NCBI GenBank assembly: GCA_030522375.1
Contig: CP130488.1
Location: 1,408,569-1,472,568, forward strand
Length of the DNA: 64,000 bases
Reading direction: 5' to 3'
DNA from: Methanosuratincola petrocarbonis
GTDB taxonomy: Archaea > Thermoproteota > Methanomethylicia > Methanomethylicales > Methanomethylicaceae
Positions 6,691 to 61,982 of this stretch are shown piece by piece (the stretch's first letter is position 1; each line of letters begins with the position of its first letter). Both the position numbers and the translations under genes were made by a program. The notes below the pieces were generated by a model. That model was not told the DNA's origin, did not search any database, and saw only the letters and a list, made by a program, of their open reading frames with translations.

Positions 6691-6996
6691 ACGGGGCGAG
6701 TTGGCGGGCGACCGACGGGCCCTTCGGGGCCTGAGGAAACTCCACCCTCCATGTGGAACCGCGATGCCGCGAGGCATAGGGGGAGACCCCTGCTCTTGGA
6801 TCAGAAACGGTACGCCCGGAAGCGGATGCCAATGACGTGGCTCTAGCCATCGAGAATGCTTCCGGTCACGTTGAAACGGCCAATCCGCGGGGAGCAAGGG
6901 CAAATAGAGGTCCATGAGGTCCACGCGAGACCCGGGTAGCCTGCATAGTCGAATGTCGCCTAAAACAGAAGGTGGGTTACGGCCAACACGCCCCAA
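6691..6996 (+). ncRNA. rnpB: RNase P RNA (archaeal type)
   Basis: About 305 nt GC-rich region with no credible ORF. A terminal P1 helix pairs GGGGCGAGUUGGC (6693-6705) with GCCAACACGCCCC (6982-6994). A P4-like pairing joins GAGGAAACUCCACCCUCC with ACAGAAGGUGGGUUA and covaries relative to the bacterial GUCCGGG/CCCGGC while keeping the AGGAAA and ACAGAA hallmarks. Confidence 0.55.
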
Positions 6997-7156
6997 CTTG
7001 GGGTCCTTTTTCTTTGGATTCAACCAGGATGCATTTTTCCTTTCGGCAATTTGTCATTTTTGCTCCAATGGGACAACAATCAGCAAAGACGGATAATATT
7101 CATAAAAACTATTTTAAGACATAAGATGAAAAATAAAAACGAGTTGATGTAGAAAA

Positions 7157-7440: not shown

Positions 7441-8127
7441 ATGGAAGCGAGATCGATCCCAATCGTCGGTCTAATGGCAGCCGTATATGCCGTAGTCACG
7501 CTCCTGCCAGGATTTCCGGTCATCGGCGCGCCAGGGTCTGAGATAGATCTAGCAAGGAGCCTGGAGCCCATATACGGCATCATGATGGGCACATACTTCG
7601 GTCCATTGGCTGCCTTCCTGGGGGCGATCCTGGGCAAGATAATAAGCGGGGAGAGCGGGAGCCTTCTTTTCACCCCCCTCGCGCTAGTATCGACATTGAG
7701 CGCCGCACTCATCTACAGAGGCAGAATTGCGAGGGTCCCTGGCTGGGCTGTGTCTGGTCTGATTTTGACAGCCATGATTGCTATTTGGAGCACCACACAG
7801 CAAGCACAGAATGCGCCCTATTTTGCGGTACCGCACATCGCAGCGGCAGCAATGGCTTTCGGCCTCGGTGGCAGACTCCACAAATCACTGAAGAGCGGCA
7901 GGATGGGGATGGCTCTGGGGCTATTCCTTGTCAGCTTCATATCCACAATGACAGGAAACATGCTCGGGAATTTGATTTTTGTGGCGGTATATAGCCCAAG
8001 CCCGTATTTCTTCGTCCCAATGCTTGCCATAACATTGCCTGAAAGGCTGTCGATATCCCTGGCGTCGACAGCGATTGGAGTGCCGCTTATAATGGCGGTC
8101 AGAAAGCTAGCCAAGCCGAGCCCATAA
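7441..8127 (+). CDS. Polytopic membrane protein, ECF S-component-like
   Basis: 228 aa with about 6 TM helices, Gly/Ala-rich. Topology resembles BioY/ECF substrate-specific components. The function is inferred only. Confidence 0.45.
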   Translation: MEARSIPIVGLMAAVYAVVTLLPGFPVIGAPGSEIDLARSLEPIYGIMMGTYFGPLAAFLGAILGKIISGESGSLLFTPLALVSTLSAALIYRGRIARVPGWAVSGLILTAMIAIWSTTQQAQNAPYFAVPHIAAAAMAFGLGGRLHKSLKSGRMGMALGLFLVSFISTMTGNMLGNLIFVAVYSPSPYFFVPMLAITLPERLSISLASTAIGVPLIMAVRKLAKPSP

Positions 8128-8349
8128 AGGAAGGGAGCTCAGAGCTGCGGCTCATAGTCCTCTGGAGCTTCCCAAGCATGCTCCAGTCTTTTCGCTACAC
8201 TCTTAACTGCCTTAGAGCGCTTGGGGCTTCTTCTGATTCTGGGGATCCTTCTTTTAAGTACTAGAGCCATTTTAAGTCATATAATAGTTCGCTGTCGAAG
8301 TATTTAATGTTATTCCAAGGCATTAAACGAAATAAAAATCGACTATTGT

Positions 8350-10816: not shown

Positions 10817-10912
10817 TGGTAGCGGGGGGTGGATTTGAACCACCGATCTCGGGGTTTCTCAACCGACGGGGCTTATGAGCCCCGCGGGATAACCTGGCTA
10901 CCCCACCCCGCT
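10817..10912 (-). tRNA. Initiator tRNA-Met (anticodon CAU) with an 18-nt anticodon-loop intron
   Basis: Reverse complement reads AGCGGGGTGGGGTAGCCAGGTTATCCCGCGGGGCTCATAA[intron]CCCCGAGATCGGTGGTTCAAATCCACCCCCCGCTACCA. It has an A1:U72 pair, a GGG:CCC anticodon stem and a CUCAUAA loop. The intron lies at canonical 37/38 (about 10856-10873). CCA is encoded. Confidence 0.75.
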
Positions 10913-11976: not shown

Positions 11977-12549
11977 TCATACCATAGCCAGGGCACTGAT
12001 TATGCGGCCTATCAGCAAGTCCACCTTCCCGAAACTATCCCTCAATTTTTCAAGATCGTTGGTGTAGTAATAGTCCCCCTCGTCGTTGACCAGAAAGTCC
12101 CCGCCCTTGTAGGTAACCATAGCCTCGACAAGCTTCAGGACGTCGCATATCAGCAGGTGCGCAGAAAGCGGCGCGAACTGGGTCTTCACGAAGGTGTAAG
12201 GAAGCTGCCAGACGCCCTCGCCGCCCAGCTCGTAGAAGGTGACCTCAAATGACTCGCAGCCAGGGTGCACATTAGCCAGGATGCCCTTCTTCTTTGTGGG
12301 TGTGCGCGGCTCCTTTGAGTTGGGCTTGAATGTGTAGACGAACGAGCCCTTCTGCACCCAAGACGGCACGGGCTTGAGGTTGACCAGCGACTTTGCTTTT
12401 TTAAAGTCCTCATCCGAATCGAAGCCGTCCAAGCGCTTGATGTCTGTCACCTTGTTCTCCCTGAGCATGTCCTCGACCTGGGCGAGTATTTTTGAGATGT
12501 ACTCCTCAGCGCAGCAAACAACGCCTCGGTAGTGGATGGTGATCCCCAT
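11977..12549 (-). CDS. Hypothetical protein (190 aa)
   Basis: Intact ORF. No family recognised. Confidence 0.45.
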   Translation of the reverse strand: MGITIHYRGVVCCAEEYISKILAQVEDMLRENKVTDIKRLDGFDSDEDFKKAKSLVNLKPVPSWVQKGSFVYTFKPNSKEPRTPTKKKGILANVHPGCESFEVTFYELGGEGVWQLPYTFVKTQFAPLSAHLLICDVLKLVEAMVTYKGGDFLVNDEGDYYYTNDLEKLRDSFGKVDLLIGRIISALAMV

Positions 12550-12629: not shown

Positions 12630-12818
12630 ATGTTTTCGATCAACATGGTGAAAGGGGTCTGCTGCGTCTGCCACAAGAACATCGGAGGGTTTTTCGAGGA
12701 GAGGGCATGGAGGTGCGAAGGGTGCGGCAGGCTTTACTGCAAAAAGTGCGCGCCCAAGAGGAAAGGGCTACTATCAGACCACCCGGTATGCCCAAGGTGC
12801 GGCAGGATGCTGAAGTAA
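12630..12818 (+). CDS. Double zinc-ribbon small protein
   Basis: 62 aa with four CxxC pairs (CCVC, CEGC, CKKC, CPRC). Confidence 0.5.
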   Translation: MFSINMVKGVCCVCHKNIGGFFEERAWRCEGCGRLYCKKCAPKRKGLLSDHPVCPRCGRMLK

Positions 12819-12910: not shown

Positions 12911-13055
12911 ATGGATTGCGAGGGGAGAGCTCTTCGGGAACAAAATCGAGCCGTAGGTGTAGGGAGCGACGCGTTCCCTGGCTGGGCTCGCGGTCCACTG
13001 GGGGAAAGTCCCACGGGAGGCGCGCCGGGCCGGAAGTGGAGGGGGGCGCTGAGGG
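12911..13055 (+). pseudogene. Decayed copy of the C2H2 zinc-finger ORF (junction cassette copy A, gene 1)
   Basis: Nucleotide homology to 58025-58186 (MDCEG... vs VDCGEELFGG...). A frameshift removes the CxxxxC...HxxxxH finger and the stop codon. Confidence 0.4.
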
Positions 13056-13256
13056 TTGAGCTGGAGGGAGGGCGAGGGCGTTCTGGAGCTCCTGCTCCTG
13101 AGGATGCGCGGGTGCGGGTCGAAGGAGGAGTGCCGGGAGGCGGTGGAAGAGGTCCTGACCCTCGTGAAGGAAAGGAAGCTCGAGAGATTAAAAGAGGACC
13201 TATGGATGATGGGAGAGATGTTTTTAAAAACAGTGCTTAATGAATTCTATTCTTAG
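13056..13256 (+). CDS. Small helical protein (junction cassette copy A, gene 2); TTG start
   Basis: LSWREGEGVLELLLLRMRGCGSKEECREAVEEVLTLVKERKLERLKEDL is paralogous to 58186-58347 and to the remnant at 16258-16353. High GC. Confidence 0.45.
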   Translation: MSWREGEGVLELLLLRMRGCGSKEECREAVEEVLTLVKERKLERLKEDLWMMGEMFLKTVLNEFYS

Positions 13257-13304: not shown

Positions 13305-14564
13305 ATGTCCAGTCTCAAGACCTTCTATGAATACGGCAAGGTCAGCAAGGATGATCTTGGACTGGACAGGCAAGACGTGAAGATTCTCGACAGGCTTGCT
13401 GACGAGAAGGCAGGCGTCCTCGATCATTCCAAAGGCGGGTACAGGTTAAAGCAGTACGTCGGGGCCATACCGCTCCACTCCTGCGTGCTTGAAGTTCTGC
13501 CAAAGATCTACAGGGGTGAGGGCGGCACGGTGCAAAACAGGTTGGCGCTATTCTGGCTGCTTTCGTTCGTAGGGGCCTTTGAAATAAAGGAGTCTGACTT
13601 TCTTAAGAAGGGCCTCGAGAAGATGGACTTCTTCGATCTGATGAAGTACGTATTCGCGAGGAACTTGAACGACCAGGTCAAGGACGGGGTCTACAGGGAC
13701 TACGTGCCGGCTGAGGGGAACGAGAGGTACCTCAAGGGCCGCCTAGACTTTGTGAAGGACATTCGCCACAACTACGCCGACAGGTCGAGGTTCTATGTCA
13801 GGTACGACGAGTATACGGAAGACAACCCGATGAACCGCACCCTTGCTGCTGCCGTCAGGGGCATGGTGCCGGGGTCGGGCGTGATGAGCAGGCAGCTGCT
13901 GGCTCGGCTCTCAGCCGCATTCTGCGACGTGGGTTACGAGAACGGGAACGGCCTACTAGTGCAGAGGGTCACGAAGAACCGCCTCAACGAAAGGTACTGG
14001 CCCTCTTATGAGATGGCAAAGATCTTCCTCTCGGGGAAGGTGCCACAGATCTATTCAGGGAAGGACCTGCTGACTTATGGATTCCTCTTCGACATGAACA
14101 GGCTATTCGAGGAGTTCGTGGGGAAATTCTTGAAGAGGCATGCGAACGAGATCTTCGGCGAGGGGGCCGAGGCGCTTGTTCAGCCGGGATACCGTTTCGG
14201 CGATCTCGCGATCAGACCCGACGTGATAATCCGCCTGAAAGACCGGACTATTGTTTTGGACACGAAGTACAAGGGCATCCCAGAAGAGACGGAGCGATCC
14301 AACGCCGACATCTTCCAAGTCTACACGTATTGCATGGCCATGAAAGAAAGAGATCCTTCGAACGAAGCGGTAGGCATCCTTCTCTATCCGAAGCACGTCG
14401 GCGAAGATGTAAACCAAAAATGCGAGACGAAGAGTGTAGGAAAAGTAAGCGAATACCATGCGAAGATATGCCGCCGGTTGATCGACTTGGATGTTGGCTA
14501 TGGCAGGGGCAATCTCGAAAAATTCGTCGAGAGGTTTGAAGAATTGTTTAAAGGAGCGATATGA
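13305..14564 (+). CDS. mcrC: McrC-like subunit of a Type IV (McrBC-like) restriction system
   Basis: 419 aa. C-terminal PD-(D/E)xK core IRPDVIIRLKDRTIVLDTKYKGI matches the McrC DxK nuclease motif. Stop overlaps the downstream McrB start (ATGA). Confidence 0.7.
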   Translation: MSSLKTFYEYGKVSKDDLGLDRQDVKILDRLADEKAGVLDHSKGGYRLKQYVGAIPLHSCVLEVLPKIYRGEGGTVQNRLALFWLLSFVGAFEIKESDFLKKGLEKMDFFDLMKYVFARNLNDQVKDGVYRDYVPAEGNERYLKGRLDFVKDIRHNYADRSRFYVRYDEYTEDNPMNRTLAAAVRGMVPGSGVMSRQLLARLSAAFCDVGYENGNGLLVQRVTKNRLNERYWPSYEMAKIFLSGKVPQIYSGKDLLTYGFLFDMNRLFEEFVGKFLKRHANEIFGEGAEALVQPGYRFGDLAIRPDVIIRLKDRTIVLDTKYKGIPEETERSNADIFQVYTYCMAMKERDPSNEAVGILLYPKHVGEDVNQKCETKSVGKVSEYHAKICRRLIDLDVGYGRGNLEKFVERFEELFKGAI

Positions 14565-16201
14565 AAATGAGCGATGAATCGTTCAATGAAACTATGAATA
14601 AAAAAGAAGATCCAGCAAGTAAATACAACTTTGGCGTAAATTTTTGGAAGGTTTCGCTAGGTCAAGGAGGCGTATACACAGAGGAGTTTATAGACAAAGA
14701 GATCTTTGCAATGGGAAGTTACAGAGTCATTTCTCTTCGTAATTTAAACGACTATGGAACTCCTGAGAAACTAGAAAAAGAAGTGCCCGAACTCTACTTT
14801 GGGGCTGAACACTATGGCGGAAATCAACTTGTCTGCATTTGGAAGAAAATGAAACGTGGTGACGTACTGTTAGCCTATAAAACAGGGACGATAACAGCTT
14901 TTGGAGTGGTTAATAGCGATTACAAATTTACTGATGAGTGGAAGTACTGGTGGTATTATGGAAATAGGTTGGGGTCGCATTATCGCAAAGTTAAATGGAT
15001 CAATCTTCTTCCTAATCCGATCCCTCTCGATGACAATGAAATAAAATTTTTAAAAGAACCTCAAAACACTATAAAGTCCTTCGAGGGACACGAAGACCTG
15101 CTATATAAAATCCTTGACAGGGCACCTTCAAAATTAATAGAAGAATTGCGAGAGCTCGTACAGAAATGCAAGTCAGTTGAACAGGAAGTTGAGCAGGAAG
15201 TGGAACCGGAAGTTGAGCAGGGATCAAAAGTGAAGAACCCTTTGAACGTCATCCTGTACGGCCCGCCGGGGACAGGGAAGACCTACGCGACTGAAGCGGC
15301 CATAATCGCGGTAGAAAAGGGGGATGACGTTCGCGAAGTTTTGCGCGAAGGGAACCTAAAGGATTACATTGAGAACAACGCAGAGAAATTAGAGGCATCC
15401 AAGCAAAGGATAAGGCGCGTAACATTCCACCCCAGCTACTCTTACGAGGACTTTATCGAGGGGATCACGGTCAGGACGGGCAACAACGGCCAGGTTGTTT
15501 ACGAAGTCAAGAAAGGCGCGTTCAGAGAGCTGGCGGAGGAGGCGCTGGATCACCTGGATAACAAGTACTATCTGGTGATCGACGAGATAAACAGGGGGAA
15601 CATTTCCAAGATATTCGGCGAGCTGGTGACGCTGATAGAGGAGGACAAAAGGTGTGGCAACCCGAATGACGGATACTGCGCCACGCTGCCTTACTCAAAA
15701 GAAGAGTTTAGGGTCCCGAAGAACCTCTACCTGATAGGGACGATGAATACATCCGACAGGAGCATTGCGCTGGTGGACCTGGCCCTCAGGAGGCGCTTCG
15801 AGTTCATAGAACTGATGCCGAGACCGGAAATCCTGGGCGGTGTGCAATTCAATGGAATCGACCTTGAGGGGCTGCTGGAAACAATCAATGAAAGGATCAA
15901 AAAGCTAGGTGAGAGAGACAAGCAGATAGGCCACGCCTACTTCATGGATGGTGAAGAACCCATCAGAGACCTCCGCAGACTGAAAGACGTATGGTTCAAC
16001 AAGGTACTGCCACTTCTCAATGAGTACTTCTACGGCCGGTGGGAGGACATTGCCTATGTATTGGGCGGCGAAAAGGGAGGCGAAGCCCCCTTCCTGGAAA
16101 GGTTGACGGAGGAAGACGCAGACCTTTACGACTTTAAGGGCTACATGGAGGACGAGGAGTTCATCGATGAGTTGAATAAGGTAATCCAAAGGCAGGAATA
16201 G
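14561..16201 (+). CDS. mcrB: McrB-like AAA+ GTPase with N-terminal EVE/PUA-like reader domain
   Basis: Walker A ILYGPPGTGKT. McrB signature LVIDEINRGNISKIFGELVTLIE and GTMNTSDRS..DLALRRRFEF. The N-terminal ~200 aa are AT-rich with an EVE-like pattern (NFWKVSLGQG...MKRGDVLLAYKTGTITAFGVVNSDYKF). Linker repeat QEVEQEVEPEVEQ. Confidence 0.85.
   Translation: MKMSDESFNETMNKKEDPASKYNFGVNFWKVSLGQGGVYTEEFIDKEIFAMGSYRVISLRNLNDYGTPEKLEKEVPELYFGAEHYGGNQLVCIWKKMKRGDVLLAYKTGTITAFGVVNSDYKFTDEWKYWWYYGNRLGSHYRKVKWINLLPNPIPLDDNEIKFLKEPQNTIKSFEGHEDLLYKILDRAPSKLIEELRELVQKCKSVEQEVEQEVEPEVEQGSKVKNPLNVILYGPPGTGKTYATEAAIIAVEKGDDVREVLREGNLKDYIENNAEKLEASKQRIRRVTFHPSYSYEDFIEGITVRTGNNGQVVYEVKKGAFRELAEEALDHLDNKYYLVIDEINRGNISKIFGELVTLIEEDKRCGNPNDGYCATLPYSKEEFRVPKNLYLIGTMNTSDRSIALVDLALRRRFEFIELMPRPEILGGVQFNGIDLEGLLETINERIKKLGERDKQIGHAYFMDGEEPIRDLRRLKDVWFNKVLPLLNEYFYGRWEDIAYVLGGEKGGEAPFLERLTEEDADLYDFKGYMEDEEFIDELNKVIQRQE
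15170..15225 (+). repeat. 12-nt tandem repeat encoding the (Q/P)EVE linker in McrB
   Basis: gaacaggaagtt gagcaggaagtg gaaccggaagtt gagcagg. Confidence 0.6.
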
Positions 16202-16257: not shown

Positions 16258-16353
16258 TGGATGCGAGGGCGAGTAAATTATGCTCTCGTCCTGGCTTTGG
16301 TCAAGGAAAGGAAGCTCGAGAGGCTGAAGGAGGAGCTGGGGATGATGGAGTAA
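16258..16353 (+). pseudogene. 3' remnant of the cassette small gene (copy B)
   Basis: ...CEGE* then a frame shift to LVLALVKERKLERLKEELGMME*. The core ggtcaaggaaaggaagctcgagaggctgaaggaggagctgggg is near-identical to the copies at 13151-13215 and 58275-58340. It sits between the convergent mcrB and RM genes. Confidence 0.5.
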
Positions 16354-16355
16354 AC

Positions 16356-19235
16356 TCAGACTCTGGTCCTGGCCCTGCGGAGCTCCTGCAGCTCTTTCAG
16401 CCCCTCTTCGACCTGGCGCCTTTCCTTTTCCGTCAGACCCAGGATGTCGTAGACGGCTTCGTCCAGCTCTTTCTGGGCCTTCTTCTCGGCTTCGATGGCC
16501 TCTTCCAGCTGTTTCCTGGCTTCGATCTCGAGGATGCCGGGTTGATCCTTCTTTTTGGAGCGGAGCGATTCCAAGGTCTCTTCGGCTTTGATGCTTTTGT
16601 TGATGGTGTTTGCAAGTTTCAAAAAGGCATTGCGCAGTTCCTGTTTTTCTGACGCGTTTATGCAATTCATGTCTATTACAGGCATTTTTTTAAGCTCGTA
16701 TACTTCGATTTTCAAAACTCCGCCACCGTAGGAACGACCAAACAGCTCAACTATTAGATGCAAAATCGATGAGTTAAGAAAAGCAGCATACGAAAACCTA
16801 TCCTCATGATTACGGAGTTTGATAAAATGAAGCACGTTAGGCGCATAAATTGTGCCTTCTAATAGATATGCTTTTGATTTTGTATCGATCATATACTGGA
16901 AAATAAGGTCAGGGTCCAACAATCTAGGCAGCACATACCACAACTTCCTCCCCTTTAAGGTCTCTAGTTCAGGCAGCCGCCTCCTTTCCTGCTTCGATCC
17001 CCTGGTGACCTCTACCTCCATCCTCTCGCCGTACTCGATGTACTTCAGGGCATTCGTCCCCTTCAGCTCCTCCTTCGGCTTGTCGCACATGAAGAAGTAT
17101 TCGTCGACTTCCTCCGGCTTTATGACCAAGCCGCGGACCTTCTTGGGCGAAGAGACGCACGGGACAAGGAACTCGGGCTCTATGCCCCACTCCTCCGCTT
17201 TTTCTTTGGAAAGTATGAAGAAGTCGTTGCATCCCGTAGTCGGTCCCCTCACGACTTCAGCAACTTCGCCGAGCGGCCTCATTTTCGGGTGTTTCATCAG
17301 CTTCTTGAATACGGGCGGGGCCCTCAGGTAAACGTTCCACTTCCCCGGCTTGAGCTTGCCCTGCTTCACGACGGTGACCCTTATCCTATCGTCCTCGATG
17401 TCCTCCTCTGACTCAAGGAGCTTCAGCAGCTCCTCATTACTGATCCTCTTCTTTACCCTCACGAACCTAGCCAGGTTCTCTTCCCTCTTCTTCTCGTCCT
17501 TTTCCTTCTGCAAGATCGTGATTGCAGTGTTCACTTCAGCGTCCGGGAAGACAGCCCTGTCGAACTCGATTACGTAGAGGATTTTTGTGTTCCTAAGCAG
17601 GAACTCCTGGAAGGGCTCGCCGTACCCGACCTCCAGCCACTTGTTCGAGGATATGTAACCGAGCATCCCTCCCTGCTTCAGGAAGCGTATCGAGTGGATG
17701 TAGAAGTAGACGTAGATGTCGCTCATCCTGTCCAGGACGATCCCCTTCTTGTTCTTTGCCTGCCCCACGAAGAGCTGGTCCTTGTACTCCTCCTGCACCA
17801 GCTGGAAGATCTTCCTCTTTTCCGAGTCGCCAAGAAGCTCCTGGCGTATGTACGGCGGGTTGGCTACGACGGCGTCGAAAGCCCCGGGGATCTTGATCAG
17901 CATCTGCTTCCCCTCGGTGTCCATGCTCCTGAAGCCCATCAGGGTTTCCTGGCGGGGCTTGAGGTCGAAGAAGTCCTTCACGGCGACGTTTATCTTTTCC
18001 ACCTTCGCCTTCGGGTTCTGTATCGCCAGGTTGATTACAGATAAGTGGGCGGGGAACTGGTTTATGTCCACGCCGTATACCTGCGCTAAAAGCTGCCTGT
18101 GGAAGATCTCGCCCAGGGGCCCCGACATCTCTTTTGGTATCCCGTTGAGCTCCCTCAGGCGCTGGTAGACTTTTACGAGGAACGACCCTGAACCACAAGC
18201 GGGGTCGAGTACCTTGGCGTCCTTCTTAGTGACGGTGAGCCTGACGATCAGGTCCACTATCTCGGGAGGGGTGTAGAACTGCCCGAGGCGCTTCCGCTCT
18301 GTGGGCGGGATGAGCTTCTCGTAGACCCTCCCGAGGAAGTCGCTTTCCATCTTCGAATAGTCGTACTCGTTCAGCGAGTCGATGAGCGTTCTGAACCTTT
18401 CCTTCGCCCTCTCGGTGAATGGGATCTCGTTCATGAGGTCAGGCTGGTATATCGGCTCGTAGTCGATGTTCCTCACTTTCTCGTAATAGTGCATCAAAGA
18501 GTCGTAGACGTCCTCCTCTTCGCCTATCGCTATCCCGGGGAGCTTGTTTGGGTATATCGTCCTGATGACGTCGTAGAAGAGGAGCTTGTTGAGCTGGAGG
18601 TAAGTAGTCTGGTCTGCGATCTTCCTGACGTCCTCCGGATCGTCGGGCCTGAGGCCCTGGTCGAGCATCCACTTTTCGAACCTGGCTCTGAAGCTGTCGT
18701 CCTGGAGCCTCTTCTTGAGCGACGAATGGAACTCTTCCCTGAGGTCCTCGTAAGCCTCGTGGAGGAGCTCGACCAGCGAGTCGTCCACGGCCTTGAGCGA
18801 GACCGGGACTATTCCGAGGACCATCTTAAGCAGCTGCTCGGCCCAGCCATCGTTCCCCTCTACGTCGATGGAAGCAACCTCGCTCTCGTAGGGCTTCTTC
18901 CCCGGCATCAACTTGAACAGGACGAGGCGCTTCGGGTTGCACGTGGCGTAGTAGGGGTAGCCGCCGTTGGAAGCGTAGGAAACGGCTTGAGAGATCACAT
19001 CCGGATCCCTTGGCTCTATGTCCCTTTTGACTCCGCCCACCTTCTTCTTGTACTTCGCCTCTATGACCAGGAGGCGCCTCCCCGACTGCTCGACTACGAG
19101 GTCGGCTTTACCACCGTTGACCTGCTTCTCTGTGTGTAAGTCGAGGTCCAAGCTAAGCTCTTTGGCTGCCTCCTTAAGATTGTAAAAGAGCCTGTTGGTG
19201 ACGAAGTCGGACTCGGACACGAGCTGGGCGGGCAT
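16356..19235 (-). CDS. Type IIG restriction-modification enzyme (N-terminal PD-(D/E)xK nuclease fused to gamma-class N6-adenine MTase and TRD)
   Basis: 959 aa. N-terminal D...LLVIEAKYKKK nuclease motif. MTase motifs in gamma order: FYTPPEIV (X), LDPACGSGSFL (I), VVANPPY (IV). Large C-terminal region consistent with a target-recognition domain. Confidence 0.75.
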   Translation of the reverse strand: MPAQLVSESDFVTNRLFYNLKEAAKELSLDLDLHTEKQVNGGKADLVVEQSGRRLLVIEAKYKKKVGGVKRDIEPRDPDVISQAVSYASNGGYPYYATCNPKRLVLFKLMPGKKPYESEVASIDVEGNDGWAEQLLKMVLGIVPVSLKAVDDSLVELLHEAYEDLREEFHSSLKKRLQDDSFRARFEKWMLDQGLRPDDPEDVRKIADQTTYLQLNKLLFYDVIRTIYPNKLPGIAIGEEEDVYDSLMHYYEKVRNIDYEPIYQPDLMNEIPFTERAKERFRTLIDSLNEYDYSKMESDFLGRVYEKLIPPTERKRLGQFYTPPEIVDLIVRLTVTKKDAKVLDPACGSGSFLVKVYQRLRELNGIPKEMSGPLGEIFHRQLLAQVYGVDINQFPAHLSVINLAIQNPKAKVEKINVAVKDFFDLKPRQETLMGFRSMDTEGKQMLIKIPGAFDAVVANPPYIRQELLGDSEKRKIFQLVQEEYKDQLFVGQAKNKKGIVLDRMSDIYVYFYIHSIRFLKQGGMLGYISSNKWLEVGYGEPFQEFLLRNTKILYVIEFDRAVFPDAEVNTAITILQKEKDEKKREENLARFVRVKKRISNEELLKLLESEEDIEDDRIRVTVVKQGKLKPGKWNVYLRAPPVFKKLMKHPKMRPLGEVAEVVRGPTTGCNDFFILSKEKAEEWGIEPEFLVPCVSSPKKVRGLVIKPEEVDEYFFMCDKPKEELKGTNALKYIEYGERMEVEVTRGSKQERRRLPELETLKGRKLWYVLPRLLDPDLIFQYMIDTKSKAYLLEGTIYAPNVLHFIKLRNHEDRFSYAAFLNSSILHLIVELFGRSYGGGVLKIEVYELKKMPVIDMNCINASEKQELRNAFLKLANTINKSIKAEETLESLRSKKKDQPGILEIEARKQLEEAIEAEKKAQKELDEAVYDILGLTEKERRQVEEGLKELQELRRARTRV

Positions 19236-50888: not shown

Positions 50889-50964
50889 GGGCCGATAGTC
50901 TAGCGGTTAGGATCCCGCCCTTACACGGCGGTGGTCGCCGGTTCGAATCCGGCTCGGCCCACCA
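50889..50964 (+). tRNA. tRNA-Val (anticodon UAC)
   Basis: GGGCCGATAGTCTAGCGGTTAGGATCCCGCCCTTACACGGCGGTGGTCGCCGGTTCGAATCCGGCTCGGCCCACCA. CCA is encoded. Confidence 0.85.
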
Positions 50965-54997: not shown

Positions 54998-55222
54998 TTA
55001 AAACTTGTGATAATTTGGTATTGATGCGATGGCGGGTCCGGAGGGATTTGAACCCTCGACCATTGACTTAGAAGGCCGCCGAAGGGGGGATTTTTCATCA
55101 GACACGGCAATTTTGATGATGTTTTGGGGGGTTGTACCGTACAGCTTCGAGAGTGCCAAGAGCTTCTCGTAGAGGTCCTCCGGGAGCGTCAAGGATCGGA
55201 AGCCTTTCCGGGGCATAAACAA
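54998..55222 (-). CDS. Ribbon-helix-helix (CopG-like) protein whose C-terminus reads through a tRNA 3' fragment
   Basis: RSLTLPEDLYEKLLALSKLYGTTPQNIIKIAV is an RHH fold. The last ~25 codons overlap the tRNA-like sequence at 55030-55078. Confidence 0.4.
   Translation of the reverse strand: MFMPRKGFRSLTLPEDLYEKLLALSKLYGTTPQNIIKIAVSDEKSPLRRPSKSMVEGSNPSGPAIASIPNYHKF
55030..55078 (-). other. tRNA 3'-half fragment (putative att site remnant)
   Basis: Reverse complement ...GGTCGAGGGTTCAAATCCCTCCGGACCCGCCA is a perfect T-arm, 7-nt acceptor 3' strand, discriminator and CCA. The matching 5' acceptor strand GGGTCCG is absent on either side. Confidence 0.45.
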
Positions 55223-55296: not shown

Positions 55297-55917
55297 TCAT
55301 GCTCTGCTTACATGGCACAACTCAATTATCCCCGACTGCCTGTAATGCCTACCAATCACCTGCAAGATCTGCCAGGAGTTCCTGAGGATGTCCTTCTGGT
55401 CGGTCGTAATGAACAAAAAGAAAATTCCTCGACTCTGGGCCCAGTCGGCGGCGTCGGCTATTATCTGGGCGTCGTTTTTGTTTCCTATGAAGTAAAGGCT
55501 GTCTACTAGTAAAAAGTCCTTAGAGCGGTCTATCAGCGGCTGGGCGGTCTTTTCCAGCGCTTCTTTTATGCTCTGCTTTATTGTGGAAAACAATAAGGTA
55601 AACCCGTAGTGCGCTTCTTCCTGGCTTTTACATTTTATTGATTTAGCCGCTTCTGATAAGAAAGCGCGGCGGTTCGGGTTCCGCTCGTTTTGCAGGGCGC
55701 GCTCTACGCTGCCCTGGCGCAGTATTTCTTTCAGAAACCTATCCATGTACCTGAAGAGCTCATCCAGCTCGCTCTTGACCGTGAGGCTGGTGTGCTTCCG
55801 ATACGCGCCTCCGTCAATGACCCTGCAGCAGTCGCTTTTATGTGGATTCCAATCCGTAGCGTACCCGTAGTAGATGCAGGTGTCTAGGAAGCAATCCGAA
55901 TGCACTTGGCTACCCAC
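55297..55917 (-). CDS. PIN-domain protein (206 aa)
   Basis: FLDTCIYY (first acidic motif), SELDELF, and C-terminal FFLFITTDQKDI (TxD motif). The extended middle region is unassigned. Confidence 0.5.
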   Translation of the reverse strand: MGSQVHSDCFLDTCIYYGYATDWNPHKSDCCRVIDGGAYRKHTSLTVKSELDELFRYMDRFLKEILRQGSVERALQNERNPNRRAFLSEAAKSIKCKSQEEAHYGFTLLFSTIKQSIKEALEKTAQPLIDRSKDFLLVDSLYFIGNKNDAQIIADAADWAQSRGIFFLFITTDQKDILRNSWQILQVIGRHYRQSGIIELCHVSRA

Positions 55918-57073
55918 GAGTCAGCGCCCCTATGAGCAACCCGGCGAGCGCCTCGCCGTCGCCGTACGACTCTTTGTAGAACTCCTTCATCTCTCTCGAC
56001 GATGCGAGTGAGCCGGCTTTAGACAGCATGATCTCGAATCCTTCAATATCCTTAGGGGCAGCCCTGAGCGCCCGCTCCAATTTAGACAGTTGGGCCTCTC
56101 TAATTTGATCGGCCCTCAACCCCTTCACCGTGGCTATAGAGAACAGGAGGGCGACGGGCTTCCAGACGTGCATGCTGTAAAATTCATACACGCGGCCCAG
56201 TTCCAGGAGTAACTTCCTGTCATGCGATGCCTTGATGGAGTACCTCTGGAAGACCTCGACGAATTTCTGGAATTGGTCGTACAGGCCAACGGATGTCATT
56301 TCCTGGCACGCCGGCGGTATCCGGTCGCCGGAGGAGCGCGCGTACTCTTCAAGCCGAGAGTAGAACTCGTCTTTTGCGAGCTCCGCAAGCATCTGGGCCA
56401 GCAGCAGGTTTTGGTTGTGGAGCGGATCGACCCGGGAGGGCACATCGATGAAGCGATCAATCCCAACGGTGCTGCAGTTTACGCCCTCCAAGAGCCTCTT
56501 TGTGGAGTAGCTCAGCTTACTATTGAGCTGGTAGAGTTTTTTGCAGAAGCCAGGGGCCTGATCGTAGAACTTTTCCAGGAAATCTTCAAGCTTTTTGAAG
56601 TATACCTCGGTCACAACCGTCTTGACTTCGCCGTAGTACTGCGCGCTCGGCAGCCCGAACTCCTCCGGGGCGATCCCGCCGACATCATTCTCACACGATT
56701 TAGGCTTCAGGTCCAGGTCGTATGACGCCATCAGCCCCTCGTCGATTTCGCCCCGGTCGTCGACGTCCAACAGGTCGCTGTGGACGTACCCGCCGTAGAG
56801 GTACCAGCTCCTCGTGATAGGGATGTCGAGCCTCTCTGCTATGAGGAAGACCATCTTCTGGAGCTTGACCTTAGATAAATAGGTCGTTCTCGGTCCGCGC
56901 CCCTCGATTTCCCGTCTCAAGTCCCTCAGGATCATTCTGAGGATCCTTTCCTCGTCCTGGGGGCTTAGGAGCGTTGGCAAAAAGGTCACCCGTAAATTGA
57001 GCAAATCATAATTTAACTTTTGTAATTGAAATATTTTTTGTTTTTTAGGTCGCTGGAGCGGCCGCACCCGCAT
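55910..57073 (-). CDS. Hypothetical protein (388 aa); start trimmed to MRVRPLQ
   Basis: The upstream part of the track ORF runs antisense through the neighbouring gene and looks spurious. No family recognised. Confidence 0.4.
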   Translation of the reverse strand: MRVRPLQRPKKQKIFQLQKLNYDLLNLRVTFLPTLLSPQDEERILRMILRDLRREIEGRGPRTTYLSKVKLQKMVFLIAERLDIPITRSWYLYGGYVHSDLLDVDDRGEIDEGLMASYDLDLKPKSCENDVGGIAPEEFGLPSAQYYGEVKTVVTEVYFKKLEDFLEKFYDQAPGFCKKLYQLNSKLSYSTKRLLEGVNCSTVGIDRFIDVPSRVDPLHNQNLLLAQMLAELAKDEFYSRLEEYARSSGDRIPPACQEMTSVGLYDQFQKFVEVFQRYSIKASHDRKLLLELGRVYEFYSMHVWKPVALLFSIATVKGLRADQIREAQLSKLERALRAAPKDIEGFEIMLSKAGSLASSREMKEFYKESYGDGEALAGLLIGALTRG

Positions 57074-57087
57074 ATCGTTTGCATCTT

Positions 57088-57893
57088 TCAGGCCGGTTTT
57101 TCCCTGATCTCGAAGACGCACCTCTTGTTGCCCTTCGCGATGCACTCGGTCTCTTCGACCTGGAAGGGCTTCCCGAAGACCTCCGCGAAGACACCGGCGA
57201 TTATCCCCCTCACCATGGCCCCGTATGGCTGCCCGGTCACTTTTGCACCATTGCACTCGAAGGAGTCGTAGACGGCGATCTTCCCGCCCGAGTCCCCGAG
57301 GTGGATCACCTCGATCCTGCCGAACCCCGCCCACTGGAATGCGGCGGTGCTGATGCGGCGGTAGATCTCTACTGGGTCCTTCAGCCCGACCGCTTCAGCG
57401 GCTGATCTGTGCAGCTTCCCGAACCCTTTGCCTGCCTCGAGCCCCTCGTAGTACAGGAAGGCCTCGCCGCCGGATCCGAACTGCTCCTTTATCCCCCTGA
57501 TGAGCCGCCTGTACCCGGCTGCTCTGAGGATTATCGCCCTGTCGCCCCCTGCCGTCAGAGGATGGGACAGGTTGTCGATGATCAAGCCTTCGGCGACGGG
57601 CTCGATGATCTTCACCTGGCTGGCCATCCCGGTGGACTCGAGCTCCTGAACGAGCTCGTTCATCGGGACGTCGCACTCCGTCACGTCCAGGAAGGTTATG
57701 ACGGGGTACGAATCGGTCGTCGCCGAGGGCGAGGAGGCGAAGTACATCGGCAGCGCCCTGTGCCTGGCCGCCGTCTTGGTCAGGGCGGGGAGGGTATCGG
57801 GGTCGGCCTTGATGATGAACCTCAGCCCCGCTAGCTTCCTGCCCGGCAGCACGAGCATTCTAGACAAGTCGAACTCATAGCTCATAGTGTTTA
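57088..57893 (-). CDS. V4R-domain protein (predicted small-molecule-binding regulator)
   Basis: C-terminal V4R pattern: SFECNGAKVTGQPYGAMVRGIIAGVFAEVFGKPFQVEETECIAKGNKRCVFEI. Start set at MSYEFDL. The track ORF extends spuriously to 58197. Confidence 0.5.
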
Positions 57894-58024
57894 ATTTCCG
57901 TTTTGCAAAAATAACACTTTCGCCCCCGAGTCCTGGCTTCCGCTTTCCGGAAATTCTTAAGCCTCCCGGAGGCGGATCGGCGTGGTGCTGGTGGGTTTCC
58001 GTGATCGGAAAGAGGCCGTCGCTC

Positions 58025-58186
58025 GTGGACTGCGGGGAGGAGCTCTTCGGCGGGAGGGTCAGGTGCAAGTACAGGGGGTGCAGGAAGTGGTGCGCCTCCT
58101 GGCTGGGTCTGGCCGTGCACCTGAGGAAGGGGCACGGGGTGTCGGCGTCGGAGGTGTCCTGGAAGGACCTGGAGGGGGAGCGGTGA
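58025..58186 (+). CDS. Small C2H2 zinc-finger protein (junction cassette copy C, gene 1)
   Basis: (V/M)DCGEELFGGRVRCKYRGCRKWCASWLGLAVHLRKGHGVS... contains C-x4-C-x12-H-x4-H. Its stop overlaps the gene 2 start (TGATG). GC about 65%. A longer ATG-initiated frame begins at 57887. Confidence 0.45.
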   Translation: MDCGEELFGGRVRCKYRGCRKWCASWLGLAVHLRKGHGVSASEVSWKDLEGER

Positions 58187-58347
58187 TGGGCTGGCACGAG
58201 TGCGAGGGCGTCCTTGAGCTGGTCCTTGTGAGGATGAAGAGGTGCGCAACGGCGGAGGAATGCCGCGGGGCCGTGGAGGAGGTCCTTGCGCTGGTCAAGG
58301 AAAGGAAGCTCGAGCGGCTGAGGGAGGAGCTGGGGGTGATTGGATAG
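58186..58347 (+). CDS. Small helical protein (junction cassette copy C, gene 2)
   Basis: MGWHECEGVLELVLVRMKRCATAEECRGAVEEVLALVKERKLERLREELGVIG is paralogous to 13056-13256 and the remnant at 16258-16353. AT-rich foreign DNA begins immediately downstream. Confidence 0.5.
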   Translation: MGWHECEGVLELVLVRMKRCATAEECRGAVEEVLALVKERKLERLREELGVIG

Positions 58348-58778: not shown

Positions 58779-59375
58779 TTGAATCCAGACGATGCATTTG
58801 AGCAAAATAAAGAATGCATACCTTTTTCTGAGATAATCAAAAAAACTACCGGTCACGAAGTCCAACCACTTTCGAAAGAAGATAACGATGTGATAAATGA
58901 AATATCTGAAGCAGCTAAAAAAATTTTAGAGAGATACAAAAACGAAGTCTTTTCTGATCGACGACCTAATGAAGTTAGCAATCTTTTAGAAAGAGAATTA
59001 AGAGCTTCGCTTAAGGGTGCTAGCATACCAGAAAATAAAGCTGCAGGGTATCCAGACATCCTGATTGTAAGAGGACCTCGCTGTTTCTATATAGAAGTGA
59101 AACTGACCGGTGAAGAACAGACCGATAGTTCTTTAAGGTCTTTCTATTACGAGCCGGCAAAAAATGTTAAAATAAAAAAAGATGCGCGCCATATCCTAAT
59201 TGGATTTGAACACCGCAATAAAAATTTACATAAATTCAAAATTGTTGATCTTTCAAAAATAAATGTTTGTTTGAAAAAAGAATTCAATGCTAATAATAGA
59301 GAACTTTATAAAAAAGAGGCAATCGTGTTAGAATATCCCCCAGAAAAGTCAAATCAGTCGACTTTGGCAGGTTAA
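58779..59375 (+). CDS. Type II restriction endonuclease (PD-(D/E)xK)
   Basis: [20 protein letters not shown] gives a PD...ExK core. About 33% GC. TTG start preceded by AGGAG. Its 3' end overlaps the convergent MTase gene by 27 nt. Confidence 0.55.
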
Positions 59376-60194
59376 CCTCAATTCATTTATCCTCTTTTCT
59401 GCCTCTCTGGCATAGTATTCGTCTATCTCAAAACCTATCCAATCTATTCCCAGTTTTTTACAAGCTATGGCAGTATTACCAATGCCCATAAATGGATCGA
59501 GAACGAGTTGTGTCTTGCTAACCCCATGAAGTTTGATGCACGTCATTGGAACCTCAGGCGGAAATGACGAAGGATGAGGCCTTTGCTTTTCTTTTGATCT
59601 TATGGTATTATATGGAATAAACCAAGTGTTACCACGACATCTTAAATCTTTACTTACCGATTTCCATCTTCCTATGTTCGATTTATCTTGATAAGGCACA
59701 CCTATTGCCAGTCTATCAAGTTCAACATCCCCTTTTTTTGTAAAATGAAAAATGTATTCAAAGCAGTCATTAAGAAAGCGTTTCCCACCAATTGGTTTAA
59801 AATGCCCAACAGCAATATCGCCCTTTATGTTTGGATAATCCCCAACATCTTCTTTCTTTATGGCGATAGACTTGACCCAAATGATAATGTTCTGAAGCGT
59901 GAAGTATTTTCTTAACCTGAAAGCGACTTCCCATGGCACCCAAAGATCGGTAGGCTTGTGCCCAAAGTTAAGGAAGAATGATCCATCTTTGTGCAATACA
60001 CGCCTACACTCTTTTCCTACTTCGTCAATCCAAGCTAAGTAATCTTCCCGAGGTATAGTGTCGTCATATTTATTGTACTTCACCCCAATATTGTATGGAG
60101 GCGAAGTAACGATTACATCGACTTCTTCTGGGTTGAGAAGGGTTTTCATACCTTCCAAGCAATCCATTACATAGATTTTGTTTCTTTCAATCAT
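59349..60194 (-). CDS. Beta-class DNA methyltransferase (N4-cytosine/N6-adenine; SPPY motif)
   Basis: Motif [14 protein letters not shown] lies N-terminal to motif [14 protein letters not shown], i.e. beta-class order. N-terminal [13 protein letters not shown]. Confidence 0.85.
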
Positions 60195-60432: not shown

Positions 60433-60699
60433 TTAATCCTCCGCCAGAGCTCTTATTTCCTCCAGCTTCTCGGCCACCTTCTTCCCCTTCTCGGTTAGCG
60501 AGATGAGTCTTCTAGGAGGGAAACTTTCTTCACGCTTCTCAGTAATTAGACCGAGACTCAAAAGAATTCTAAGATTATTGTAAACAGTCTGCCGGTTCAT
60601 TTTGCCAAATGAAACAATATCTGACAAAGTCCACTCTTTCTTCGAGTCGCTATTTAGTACTGTCAAAATCTCTTGAGCTGGACTAAGCAGGTTATTCAT
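60433..60699 (-). CDS. Small wHTH regulator upstream of the MTase (possible controller)
   Basis: 88 aa. NRQTVYNNLRILLSLGLITEK is a winged-helix recognition element. Same strand as the MTase. Confidence 0.45.
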   Translation of the reverse strand: MNNLLSPAQEILTVLNSDSKKEWTLSDIVSFGKMNRQTVYNNLRILLSLGLITEKREESFPPRRLISLTEKGKKVAEKLEEIRALAED

Positions 60700-61027: not shown

Positions 61028-61224
61028 CGTTCGTCTACGTCCTGAAGAGCCAGCGCCAGGAGGTCTACGAGCTCCGGAGGAACAGGTCCAGGCACGGGAA
61101 GCCTATCACCCGCGACGAGGCCAGGGAGCTGATCTCGCTGCCTGGGACTGTGAGGCTGATGCGCGTCGCCTGCGGCGACGGCTACCTGAACGAGGTCTAC
61201 GAGATAGGGGGTGGCCCGGCGTGA
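61024..61224 (+). CDS. Small protein translationally coupled to the RHH gene (possible toxin partner); TTG start
   Basis: 66 aa, LTFVYVLKSQRQEVYELRRNRSRHGKPITRDEAREL.... Its start overlaps the RHH stop (TTGA). The family is unclear. Confidence 0.3.
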   Translation: MTFVYVLKSQRQEVYELRRNRSRHGKPITRDEARELISLPGTVRLMRVACGDGYLNEVYEIGGGPA

Positions 61225-61982
61225 CGGAAGAAAGAGGTATGGGTCTGTCGTCCGCCGCGCCGGGAGGTCCCCATGATAATTTTTCACCGGGAGCAAATGA
61301 ACATGACGATTATAAATCTATAATGAATTGCAATACCTCCATTTCCACTCCATCCACTGGAACTCCACGCGGGTATAATATACGCCAAAATGCGTGTTAT
61401 AATTATAATGATTATAATTATAATGGTTATAATTATAACGAGAGCTCCTATAATAATATAGGCTCGCGCACTCCAGTGGCTCCAATGGAAATGGAGGTTC
61501 CGAGGAAGACCGTGGTCGTGAGTGCGGGAATTCCTCATGACCTCTTTGCAAAGCTGAGCGAGCGCGAGAAGATCACCGGTCGGTCCCGTTCCGAAATAAT
61601 CAAGGAAGCCCTTTCCCTCTACCTCAACGGCGACCCGCAAATAACCGACGTCCCGCCGCCAAGGCCGTCCCTGTCGTCCCAGCTGCAAGCAAGCAAAAGC
61701 CGGGAAGAGCTCCAGGACCTTTTGAAGTCGCTCACGAATACCCTGTTAGCCGTCCGCGATGGCATGTGCGAGCCGCTGTGGGTCAAGGAATGGTACCCGC
61801 GCTGGAACAAGCGCCTCATAAGTGCAGTCCAGAAGCTAGAGCCGATGGACGACTTCCAGGAGCGGCTCGTCAGGGTGATGTCATCGATTGCAAAAGAGCT
61901 TAGAAACATCGACCCGAGGTCCGAAGAAGCCTACGGGCGTACGAAGTCGCTCTTGGAACAACTCATGGAGGCGAGACCATGA
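61221..61982 (+). CDS. RHH-domain protein with N/Y-rich low-complexity insert and C-terminal helical domain
   Basis: RHH block RKTVVVSAGIPHDLFAKLSEREKITGRSRSEIIKEALSLYL. The insert NYNDYNYNGYNYNESSYNN is encoded by a (TATAAT)-like tandem repeat. Confidence 0.5.
   Translation: MTEERGMGLSSAAPGGPHDNFSPGANEHDDYKSIMNCNTSISTPSTGTPRGYNIRQNACYNYNDYNYNGYNYNESSYNNIGSRTPVAPMEMEVPRKTVVVSAGIPHDLFAKLSEREKITGRSRSEIIKEALSLYLNGDPQITDVPPPRPSLSSQLQASKSREELQDLLKSLTNTLLAVRDGMCEPLWVKEWYPRWNKRLISAVQKLEPMDDFQERLVRVMSSIAKELRNIDPRSEEAYGRTKSLLEQLMEARP
61385..61440 (+). repeat. Hexanucleotide (TATAAT/TATAAC-like) tandem repeat inside a coding region
   Basis: aattataatgattataattataatggttataattataac encodes NYNDYNYNGYNYN. 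Confidence 0.6.

Follow-up and report, generated by a model that had tools for sequence, protein, structure and literature searches.

Two small, translationally coupled genes, here designated g1 and g2, lie towards the right end of a 64,000 nt stretch of Methanosuratincola petrocarbonis DNA (contig CP130488.1, positions 1,408,569 to 1,472,568; the whole stretch is referred to below as the window). Comparison of the loci that carry them indicates that they form a two-gene operon in the conserved backbone of small (approximately 5–10 kb) integrative elements of the Methanomethylicia, namely Candidatus Methanosuratincola and its relatives. The backbone comprises an integrase of the Sulfolobus spindle-shaped virus (SSV) type, which is 'suicidal' in that its attachment site (attP) lies inside its own open reading frame (ORF), and the divergently oriented g1-g2; a winged-helix gene recurs in many copies. 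We put at roughly 0.6 the probability that the pair is the backbone operon of tRNA-integrating elements and supplies a putative zinc-finger regulator of the region between the integrase gene and g1 (int/g1), with a part in element maintenance. The functions proposed for the two proteins are inferred from their sequences and from models. The pair is unannotated in every library tried.

The window is archaeal (partial large-subunit rRNA at 1–2081 and RNase P RNA at 6696–6991, both found with Rfam), and its genes are 99–100 % identical to those of metagenome-assembled genomes (MAGs) of Candidatus Methanosuratincola petrocarbonis. The features needed first belong to the copy of the pair designated copy B and to the integrase fragment near it. 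The latter was absent from an earlier reading of the window made without database searches (the sequence-only reading).

54998..55222, minus strand: Int(N), a 74-aa ORF that is the N-terminal fragment of an SSV-type integrase.
57915..57962, plus strand: conserved upstream region of g1-g2, with a CACTTTCGCC box at 57915-57924, the palindrome TTTCCGGAAA at 57944-53 and the TATA-like sequence TTCTTAAG at 57954-61.
58001..58186, plus strand: g1, 61 aa with a GTG start, a predicted single classical C2H2 zinc-finger protein with C22, C27, H40 and H45 as well as C31 and W34.
58186..58347, plus strand: g2, 53 aa, a predicted hairpin of helices in which Cys6, Cys20 and Cys26 are conserved and the C-terminus (EEVLALVKERKLERLxEELG) is nearly invariant.

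The mechanical ORF covering the first gene runs from 57887 to 58186 (+) and contains ...DCGEELFGGRVRCKYRGCRKWCASWLGLAVHLRKGHG... in its translation. However, 57887 is probably no more than a mechanical start, and the likely start of g1 is the GTG at 58001, since the homologues begin near there and are 54–66 aa long. The interval 57887–58000 is then an intergenic promoter region common to g1 and a divergent gene for a V4R-domain protein. The g1 frame translates as ...DCGEELFGGRVRCKYRGCRKWCASWLGLAVHLRKGHGVSASEVSWKDLEGER and the g2 frame (58186–58347) as MGWHECEGVLELVLVRMKRCATAEECRGAVEEVLALVKERKLERLREELGVIG (MGWHECEGV...LGVIG), and the TGA of g1 (58184–58186) and the ATG of g2 (from 58186) have one base in common, the A. 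Hence, the two coupled ORFs described in the sequence-only reading, with a C-x4-C-x12-H-x4-H finger in the first and a TGATG overlap between them, are present where it placed them. Its statement that both copies then recognized are about 65 % GC holds for copy B, at 66.6 % against a window mean of 50.3 %, but not for the second, copy A, which is 59.8 % GC overall and 53.7 % in its g2. A 21-nt core, GTSAAGGAAAGGAAGCTCGAG, occurs exactly three times in the window against none expected from shuffled sequence; a further match with three mismatches at 62392 was rejected as another copy as it falls inside the ORF for a VirArc nuclease.

The nature of the elements was established from related loci, among them locus L018, a contig of a M. 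petrocarbonis MAG that carries an intact integrase gene. This gene lies approximately 130 bp from g1, is divergent from it and encodes a tyrosine integrase of 361 aa that matches PF00589 and PF16795 as well as the PHROGs integrase family phrog_5127 (E = 1e-24). Its closest viral relatives are the integrases of fuselloviruses (SSV, SSV-RH) and of APSV1, and L018 also encodes a DnaA-like protein of a kind found in viruses. In the SSV family, the attP site lies within the integrase gene, which is split on integration (PMC7253208), and the L018 integrase was used as a tblastn query against all loci. N-terminal fragments, Int(N), were found upstream of g1-g2 in the window and in ten other loci (L001, L003, L004, L017, L019, L026, L027, L033, L039 and L051), and C-terminal fragments, Int(C), were found at the opposite end, next to a tRNA gene, in five (L001, L003, L006, L026 and L044).

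Both ends of an element are seen in the complete chromosome of M. verstraetei LCB70 (L001), where perfect 48-nt repeats of the 3'-end of a tRNA-Val gene, at 8027–8074 and 15764–15811, lie 7.7 kb apart. The segment they bound contains Int(N) at 8095–8214, a V4R gene, g1, g2, a gene for an MmeI-like enzyme, a small winged-helix gene and Int(C) at 15418–15772. In L003, perfect 43-nt tRNA-Gly repeats at 7109–7151 and 16851–16893 are 9.7 kb apart. Stretches of 44–48 nt that match the 3' part of a tRNA gene were also recovered from within integrase ORFs, at approximately positions 141–193 of the ORF, with 100 % identity to tRNA-Val (L026), tRNA-Arg (window) and tRNA-Pro (L051) and 91 % identity to tRNA-Gly (L039). 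As the integrase fragments carry Val, Arg, Pro or Gly tRNA segments, the integrase has switched targets. Thus the related loci display an integrase of the SSV type, an attP within the ORF and, in L001 and L003, flanking fragments and att repeats with an intact tRNA gene. When all genes of 14 such regions were compared with one another, the families common to most of them were g2, the integrase, g1, the MmeI-like enzyme, the V4R protein and the winged-helix protein.

In the window, Int(N) corresponds by tblastn to residues 1–63 of the 361-aa integrase (60 % identity) and includes, at 55030–55077, a 48-nt att sequence that is 100 % identical to the 3' part of tRNA-Arg(TCT). Copy B is 2.8 kb away, and the tRNA identity within Int(N) indicates that it is part of an element inserted at a tRNA-Arg gene. 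Read from left to right, the visible content of this element is Int(N), two genes of unknown function, the V4R gene, g1-g2, an MjaV-type restriction-modification (RM) system, a winged-helix gene, and genes for a ribbon-helix-helix (RHH) protein and a VirArc nuclease. The tRNA-Val site of the window (50889–50964), which in M. verstraetei LCB70 is occupied by the 7.7-kb element (L001 8027–15839), is empty. Nor is any element integrated in the 96-nt tRNA gene at 10817–10912 (-), which has a CAT anticodon and apparently an intron; ARAGORN reports it as 'tRNA-???', but Rfam recognized it.

The loci searched out with the pair were ten from genomes, all of them Methanomethylicia, and 45 from metagenomes. 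Where enough upstream DNA was available (31 distinct g2 loci), 23 have an intact finger ORF directly upstream of g2, five have a degraded one and three have none. The distance from the g1 stop to the g2 start ranges from -1 to +5 nt, i.e. from a 1-nt overlap to a 5-nt gap, and the insertions and deletions (indels) at this junction leave both frames open. This variation in length indicates that g1 and g2 are separate, coupled cistrons rather than one frameshifted gene. The latter possibility, and that of a single 121-aa ORF at 57982–58347, were rejected as the junction indels differ from locus to locus and purifying selection is seen only in the two proposed frames. The ratio of non-synonymous to synonymous change (pN/pS) is 0.35 for g1 in its proposed frame versus 1.38 and 1.43 in the other two (seven copies), and 0.36 for g2 versus 0.83 and 1.24 (11 species-level copies). 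With Cys and His positions conserved in approximately 25 homologues, these frame-specific values indicate that g1 and g2 are real reading frames under purifying selection, and so dispose of the possibility, raised in the sequence-only reading, of a spurious GC-rich frame. Nor is the pair an ordinary housekeeping operon, the other possibility raised there, as it occupies strain-variable loci and is present in multiple copies.

We also asked whether the conserved entity could be a DNA or RNA element (a repeat, an att site or a structured RNA) in which the ORFs are incidental. The 3' end of g2 is indeed repeated at the borders of cargo (see below), codon 39 of g2 is GAA in 11 of the 11 copies compared despite a preference for GAG elsewhere in the gene, and many metagenome contigs break at the pair. 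Against this stand the frame-specific substitution with an excess of synonymous changes in both genes, the junction indels that keep both frames open, the conservation of the zinc ligands, and a synonymous rate in g2 that is the same in its C-terminal (0.42) and N-terminal (0.42) halves. In addition, an Rfam scan of the whole window returned rRNA, RNase P RNA and tRNAs only, with no match at the cassette. As a full explanation, a nucleic-acid element is essentially refuted. The contig breaks were recorded separately: about 20 of the 45 metagenome contigs (L026–L070) end within approximately 250 nt of g1-g2, which is to be expected of a multi-copy sequence at strain-variable junctions, where the pair acts as an assembly breakpoint.

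The g1 protein carries a single C-x4-C-x12-H-x4-H finger. Seven residues (C22, C27, C31, S33, W34, G36 and H40) are invariant in the 25 aligned proteins, G46 is nearly so, and H45 is kept in at least 90 % of them. There are two subtypes that differ in ligand spacing, C-x4-C and C-x2-C, and across the homologues (approximately 28 relatives were found in a profile search) the spacing is that of the classical C2H2 finger, C-x2-4-C-x12-H-x3-5-H. The Leu of the hydrophobic core is kept (L37), the Phe position is taken by the invariant Cys31 with the invariant W34 nearby, and the Ikaros and Helios fingers that align with g1 likewise carry Cys at the Phe position. When the g1 profile was compared with solved structures in the Protein Data Bank (PDB), only classical C2H2 fingers, of the Ikaros/Helios/ZFAT type, were found (Helios/Ikaros/Eos, E = 0.0075–0.05), the best being Helios/Ikaros finger 1 at E = 0.0075 in an alignment that spans all of the ligands. 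The AlphaFold2 (AF2) model of g1 has a mean predicted local distance difference test (pLDDT) score of 82, with residues 11–40 averaging >90, and consists of a strand pair (residues 12–14 and 20–22), an extra two-residue strand near 30–31 and, directly after it, a helix at 34–45. The predicted layout is hence the beta-beta-alpha one, two strands followed by a helix that bears both His ligands. Foldseek neighbours of the model are mostly C2H2 fingers (Serrate/ARS2, CTCF, SWI5, KLF4, WT1 and TFIIIA), all at E > 0.1, weak values of the order to be expected for some 30 residues. Taken together, alignment and model give g1 the spacing and the predicted fold of a classical C2H2 finger, though it matches nothing in Pfam, NCBIfam, PADLOC or PHROGs.

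The g2 protein is predicted with high confidence (AF2, pLDDT 90) to be a two-helix hairpin with helices at residues 3–17 and 23–49, in which Cys20 and Cys26 flank the loop. Approximately 43 distinct full-length copies are known from the searches, all of them from Methanomethylicia, and distant solo relatives occur in the Bathyarchaeia. The g2 searches gave 25 relatives, and an exhaustive profile search gave 24 representatives, Bathyarchaeia homologues included. The latter are 55–62 aa long, lack the cysteines and have no g1 upstream. No match to g2 was found in Pfam, NCBIfam or PADLOC, nor among PDB sequences using its profile. Its sole match in PHROGs was a weak one to phrog_36808, a family of unknown function (E = 0.002), and Foldseek of the model against PDB and BFVD returned generic helical hairpins only, all at E > 0.7. 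A likeness to the D-63 helical hairpin of SSV1 found no support, as Foldseek returned no fusellovirus protein. Among viral sequences, only chance-level matches were obtained when g1 and g2 were compared by tblastn with 50,697 virus records, and the core DNA motif had no match among IMG/VR viral contigs. The statement in the sequence-only reading that neither protein belongs to a nameable family is therefore borne out for Pfam, NCBIfam, PADLOC and, by sequence, solved structures, save for the weak matches of the g1 profile to PDB fingers.

Truncated or chimeric g2 ORFs also exist (P0021–P0025; loci L065–L070). In P0024, the N-terminus of g1 is joined directly to the C-terminus of g2 by an internal deletion. 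P0025, on a contig binned as Jordarchaeaceae, retains no more of g2 than its final 25 residues, joined to unrelated sequence, and its placement may reflect mis-binning or transfer.

The sequence-only reading had proposed an addiction or regulatory module. A toxin-antitoxin module that stabilizes the island would explain why two small genes, the stop of one overlapping the start of the other and one of them encoding a putative DNA binder, are found in several copies on mobile DNA. The decay is also asymmetric, g1 being lost more often than g2, as might be the case if g1 were the toxin and g2 the antitoxin. However, neither protein matches a toxin or antitoxin family in Pfam, NCBIfam or PADLOC, and a C2H2 finger of 61 aa is no known toxin fold. 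An intact g2 accompanies a degraded g1 in five of the 31 loci and stands alone in the Bathyarchaeia, and this persistence argues against g2 as a toxin held in check by g1. Moreover, the RM cargo can itself serve as an addiction module, so that no separate one is needed. We consider a toxin-antitoxin role very improbable. A stand-alone addiction cassette can thus be set aside, the pair being a backbone operon of the element with no sign of a toxin.

The intergenic region bears on a possible regulatory role. A TATA-like box approximately 46 nt before the g1 start and a Shine-Dalgarno-like GGTGG motif approximately 12 nt before it both recur in the 29 distinct upstream regions. In eight of the 29, the window included, the palindrome TTTCCGGAAA abuts the TATA-like box, at the place where a transcription factor B recognition element (BRE) would be expected. 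Inverted repeats over the BRE have been read as putative repressor sites in archaeal viruses (PMC11065993). The pair is most likely, on the sequences and models, the small DNA-binding regulatory module of the element, a reading that is favoured because the pair adjoins the divergent int gene, a palindrome sits beside the TATA-like box, and AFV1p06, a viral finger protein considered below, binds DNA. In this scheme, g1 would be a zinc-dependent DNA-binding protein that, alone or with g2 as a partner, regulates transcription at the int/g1 intergenic region, with the palindrome as its candidate operator. Such regulation could serve to control integrase expression, element maintenance or immunity, and g2 may contact g1 or a conserved host factor via its near-invariant C-terminal helix.

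The same promoter arrangement bears on another possibility, that the pair is an anti-defence operon of the anti-CRISPR/anti-CRISPR-associated (Acr-Aca) type, in which g2 would be an anti-restriction or anti-CRISPR effector that aids establishment in new hosts and g1 its autorepressor. Predicted archaeal anti-defence genes have inverted repeats over the BRE (PMC11065993), as would be the case here, and the pair consists of two small co-transcribed genes at the element end next to the integrase. The elements move among hosts rich in RM systems, and g2, with no known family and a very conserved surface helix, has the character expected of a protein that binds a conserved target. On the other hand, there is no similarity to known Acr or Aca proteins and no function assigned by PADLOC or PHROGs, and known Acrs evolve fast and are patchily distributed, while g2 is among the most conserved genes of the elements. 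Purifying selection on the pair in long-immobilized relics also speaks against it, and we regard an anti-defence operon as unlikely, though it is a serious rival.

Several observations weigh against the reading of the pair as a backbone operon that encodes a regulator of the int/g1 region. Int(N) or an integrase lies within 4 kb upstream in only nine of the 27 loci, a count made with a single integrase query, and near copy A a search by tblastn at E <= 20 and with all tRNA sequences revealed no relic of an integrase or att site, only a chance-level match in a 109-aa ORF. Only the left end of an element is present in the window, with no Int(C) or full tRNA-Arg up to base 64000, from which it follows that the element would extend rightwards past the end of the window. 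The palindrome is present in only eight of the 29 upstream variants and is restricted to the Methanosuratincola subgroup. The finger itself gains no match from the Pfam zf-C2H2 model even at E <= 1, and a lone zinc finger usually confers little sequence specificity. Furthermore, g2 is more conserved than g1 and is found without it in the Bathyarchaeia, so that the function of g2 may not depend on g1. Finally, the pair is still under selection in elements with a split integrase, which fits a role in the integrated state and not specifically the control of the integrase.

The genes that accompany copy B within the element are as follows.

57088..57885, minus strand: V4R-domain gene, between Int(N) and g1 (Pfam V4R, E = 5e-17).
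58779-59375, plus strand: MjaV-like type II restriction enzyme (PF27324 MjaV; PADLOC REase_II, E = 2.5e-22).
59349-60194, minus strand: N4/N6 DNA methyltransferase (Pfam N6_N4_Mtase, E = 1e-45).
60433..60699, minus strand: winged-helix regulator of 88 aa, with weak HxlR/ArnR1 and MarR-type matches.

The V4R gene, which is inside the att-bounded element of L001 and occurs also in L027 and L044, is cargo of a subset of the elements. Two genes of 206 aa and 474 aa between Int(N) and the V4R gene (55297–57334, -) have no family match and no counterpart in the M. verstraetei element; they probably represent additional cargo. The variable cargo proper lies between g2 and the winged-helix gene and is made up mostly of RM or McrBC genes; in the window, this RM cargo (58779..60194) has a GC content of 37.9 %. 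The winged-helix gene is shared with L001, L002 and L006 and is found in nine of the 16 loci with at least 6 kb of downstream sequence. Where Int(C) is present, it adjoins this fragment, just downstream of it. These comparisons make the 88-aa winged-helix gene a second conserved gene of the backbone and another candidate for a regulator.

To the right of the low-GC RM cargo is a block of 55–60 % GC that encodes the RHH-domain protein (61221–61982) and the VirArc_Nuclease (PF12187; 61888–62607). Both are virus- or plasmid-like and may be part either of this element or of another. In an AT-rich gap that separates a 161-aa ORF from the RHH gene, the 15-bp unit TTATAATTATAATGR is repeated three times in tandem (61396–61439), and these repeats could represent iterons, a promoter array or an origin.

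The commonest neighbour of g2 is the gene for the MmeI-like enzyme, which, as in the window, is convergent with g2 in eight other loci (L001, L009, L027, L034, L038, L041, L056 and L057), the two stop codons being 2–17 nt apart in many loci. Downstream of g2, the cargo is RM or McrBC in nearly every locus with enough sequence. These two facts could suit a controller, comparable to the C proteins of RM systems, that times or limits the adjacent RM genes by convergent transcription or promoter binding. However, the pair is unchanged whatever the cargo, be it MmeI-like, MjaV-type, McrBC or small ORFs of unknown function. In addition, a C protein is of the helix-turn-helix type and its gene precedes the restriction gene in the same orientation, whereas here the orientation is convergent, g1 is a predicted zinc finger and g2 a predicted hairpin, and the surroundings of the cargo genes showed no C-box-like repeat. 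A dedicated RM controller is accordingly a poor prospect, somewhat less probable than the anti-defence operon. That the pair travels with defence genes, as the sequence-only reading had supposed, is correct, the downstream cargo including an MmeI-like type IIG enzyme, an MjaV-like type II RM system and McrBC; it does so because it is a backbone operon of the tRNA-integrating SSV-type elements that carry them.

Copy A and a third, partial copy, which was not noticed in the sequence-only reading, lie some distance to the left in the window and flank a second set of defence genes.

12911..13256, plus strand: copy A, with a frameshifted g1 remnant at 12911-13055 and a g2 variant at 13056-13256.
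13305..16201, plus strand: McrC (13305-14564) and a McrB-like AAA protein (14561-16201; Pfam McrBC, E = 3e-59; AAA_5).
16283..16353, plus strand: copy C, a partial g2 3' end (...VLALVKERKLERLKEELGMME*) that is a direct repeat of the 3' end of copy A.
16356..19235, minus strand: 959-aa MmeI-like type IIG restriction-methyltransferase (Pfam N6_Mtase, MmeI_Mtase and Eco57I; PADLOC MTase_II and REase_MTase_IIG).

In copy A, g2 has a TTG start, is 66 aa long, and has lost both Cys6, which is replaced by Gly, and its stop codon, leaving a longer, changed C-terminus and a 3' end that is AT-richer from approximately 13141. The TTG start, altered C-terminus and frameshifted g1 had all been correctly described. 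The loss of g1, to which significance had been attached, is seen, but it belongs to a general decay of this copy, in which g2 also lost Cys6 and its stop and was disrupted by McrBC. The stop of copy C is 2 nt from that of the convergent 959-aa gene. Together, copy A and copy C bracket the McrBC genes.

For comparison, five M. petrocarbonis MAGs have the orthologous locus. It contains an ORF resembling g1 with a broken finger, an intact g2 (P0016), four other genes and the MmeI-like gene, which is 99.8 % identical to that in the window. In the window, McrC and McrB replace the four genes, and McrBC is absent from the syntenic locus in L011–L016. Copy A matches the MAG allele perfectly over 13091–13140 and diverges from approximately 13141, while copy C is the resident GC-rich g2 3' end, 92.5 % identical to the MAG allele (L012). 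Hence, copy A and the partial copy C are an older, decaying relic without an integrase in which g2 was split by the insertion of McrBC. The counterpart of copy B in a different strain (L017), a V4R-linked locus, has McrC downstream of its g2, preceded by the same DNA as in the window. Immediately before copy A, at 12630–12818 (+), is a gene for a 62-aa protein rich in Cys pairs that has weak B-box/FYVE/RING-like matches and is conserved in the syntenic M. petrocarbonis locus.

An independent case is found in L059, where a full g2 with an AT-rich yet g2-encoding end (2323–2481) is separated by an AT-rich insert of 450 bp, which contains a 120-aa ORF, from a partial GC-rich end (2940–2986). In L012, a degenerate relic of the g2 end inside the island (12123–12199) brackets three genes. 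The last 50–70 nt of g2 are therefore present as direct repeats around inserted cargo (window 13141–13222 and 16283–16353, L059 and, as a degenerate relic, L012). The proximal copy in both the window and L059 ends in AT-richer sequence that still encodes a g2-like C-terminus, and the GC-rich resident end survives as the distal partial copy. Incoming DNA that brings an AT-richer end of its own and pushes the resident one to the far side of the insert would mirror the rebuilding of the target gene by elements that target tRNA genes.

These three cases mark the 3' end of g2 as a recurrent recombination point for cargo, at which recombination may be site-specific or driven by homology. If it were site-specific, the last 50–70 nt of g2 (core AAGGAAAGGAAGCTCGAGAG) might be a dedicated secondary insertion site for swapping defence cassettes, in which case g1-g2 would be the landing pad and, possibly, a recruiting factor, with a logic comparable to that of integrons. 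We think this doubtful, and on a par with the anti-defence operon.

The Methanomethylicia are recently cultured methanogens outside the Euryarchaeota, and we found nothing in the literature on their mobile elements. The present analysis defines a compact family of tRNA-integrating elements that ferry RM systems between strains and places two small proteins, a strictly conserved pair, in their backbone. In practical terms, g1-g2 can serve as a search marker for defence-carrying islands and strain-variable junctions in Methanomethylicia genomes. If g1 is indeed a DNA-binding single C2H2 finger, it would represent a second lineage among the very few prokaryotic classical zinc fingers studied.

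Compared with known systems, g1-g2 resembles type II toxin-antitoxin modules in being a bicistronic pair of small, translationally coupled genes with several copies on mobile DNA, but differs in the absence of a family match and in a decay pattern and solo g2 homologues that misfit g2 as a toxin. An integron-like platform, in which an IntI-type integrase adjoins the insertion site and attC-like sites bound the cassettes, does not fit, as the sole integrase here targets tRNA genes, though g2 3'-end repeats do bracket cargo. With the Acr-Aca operons of archaeal viruses (PMC11065993), the pair shares small early-type genes, one of which encodes a DNA binder (putative in the case of g1), and an inverted repeat over or beside the core promoter. 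However, the archaeal Aca8 is a winged-helix protein and not a zinc finger, and there is neither a sequence link nor a known anti-defence activity of g2.

The closest counterparts of g1 are the small C2H2-type fingers of crenarchaeal viruses and plasmids, of which AFV1p06, a viral protein with a single finger that binds zinc and DNA (PMC3541406), is the characterized example. Both g1 and AFV1p06 are proteins of approximately 60 aa from archaeal mobile elements that consist of one eukaryote-like beta-beta-alpha finger, predicted for g1, with short flanking tails, and g1 agrees in ligand spacing and in predicted fold. Homology was not detected, there being no AFV1p06 chain among the PDB profile matches of g1 at E <= 10, no tblastn match to archaeal viruses and no PHROG. 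The two differ in that AFV1p06 has Glu in place of the fourth ligand while g1 keeps both His and has the extra invariant Cys31, and in that g1 is always coupled to g2.

For the elements as a whole, the likeness is to SSV-type integrative elements, which include the fuselloviruses and the pT26-2-like elements (PMC7253208, PMC8371274). The g1-g2 operon has no counterpart in the virus records searched, and most of the elements described here lack recognizable replication or virion genes, a DnaA-like gene being present in L018 only and a VirArc nuclease in the window. They differ also in their hosts, the Methanomethylicia, in their very small size (7.7–9.8 kb where both ends are seen) and in a cargo that consists mainly of RM genes. 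In both groups, however, the attP within the integrase ORF is identical to the 3' part of a tRNA gene, Int(N) and Int(C) fragments flank the element, and the target tRNAs vary among relatives.

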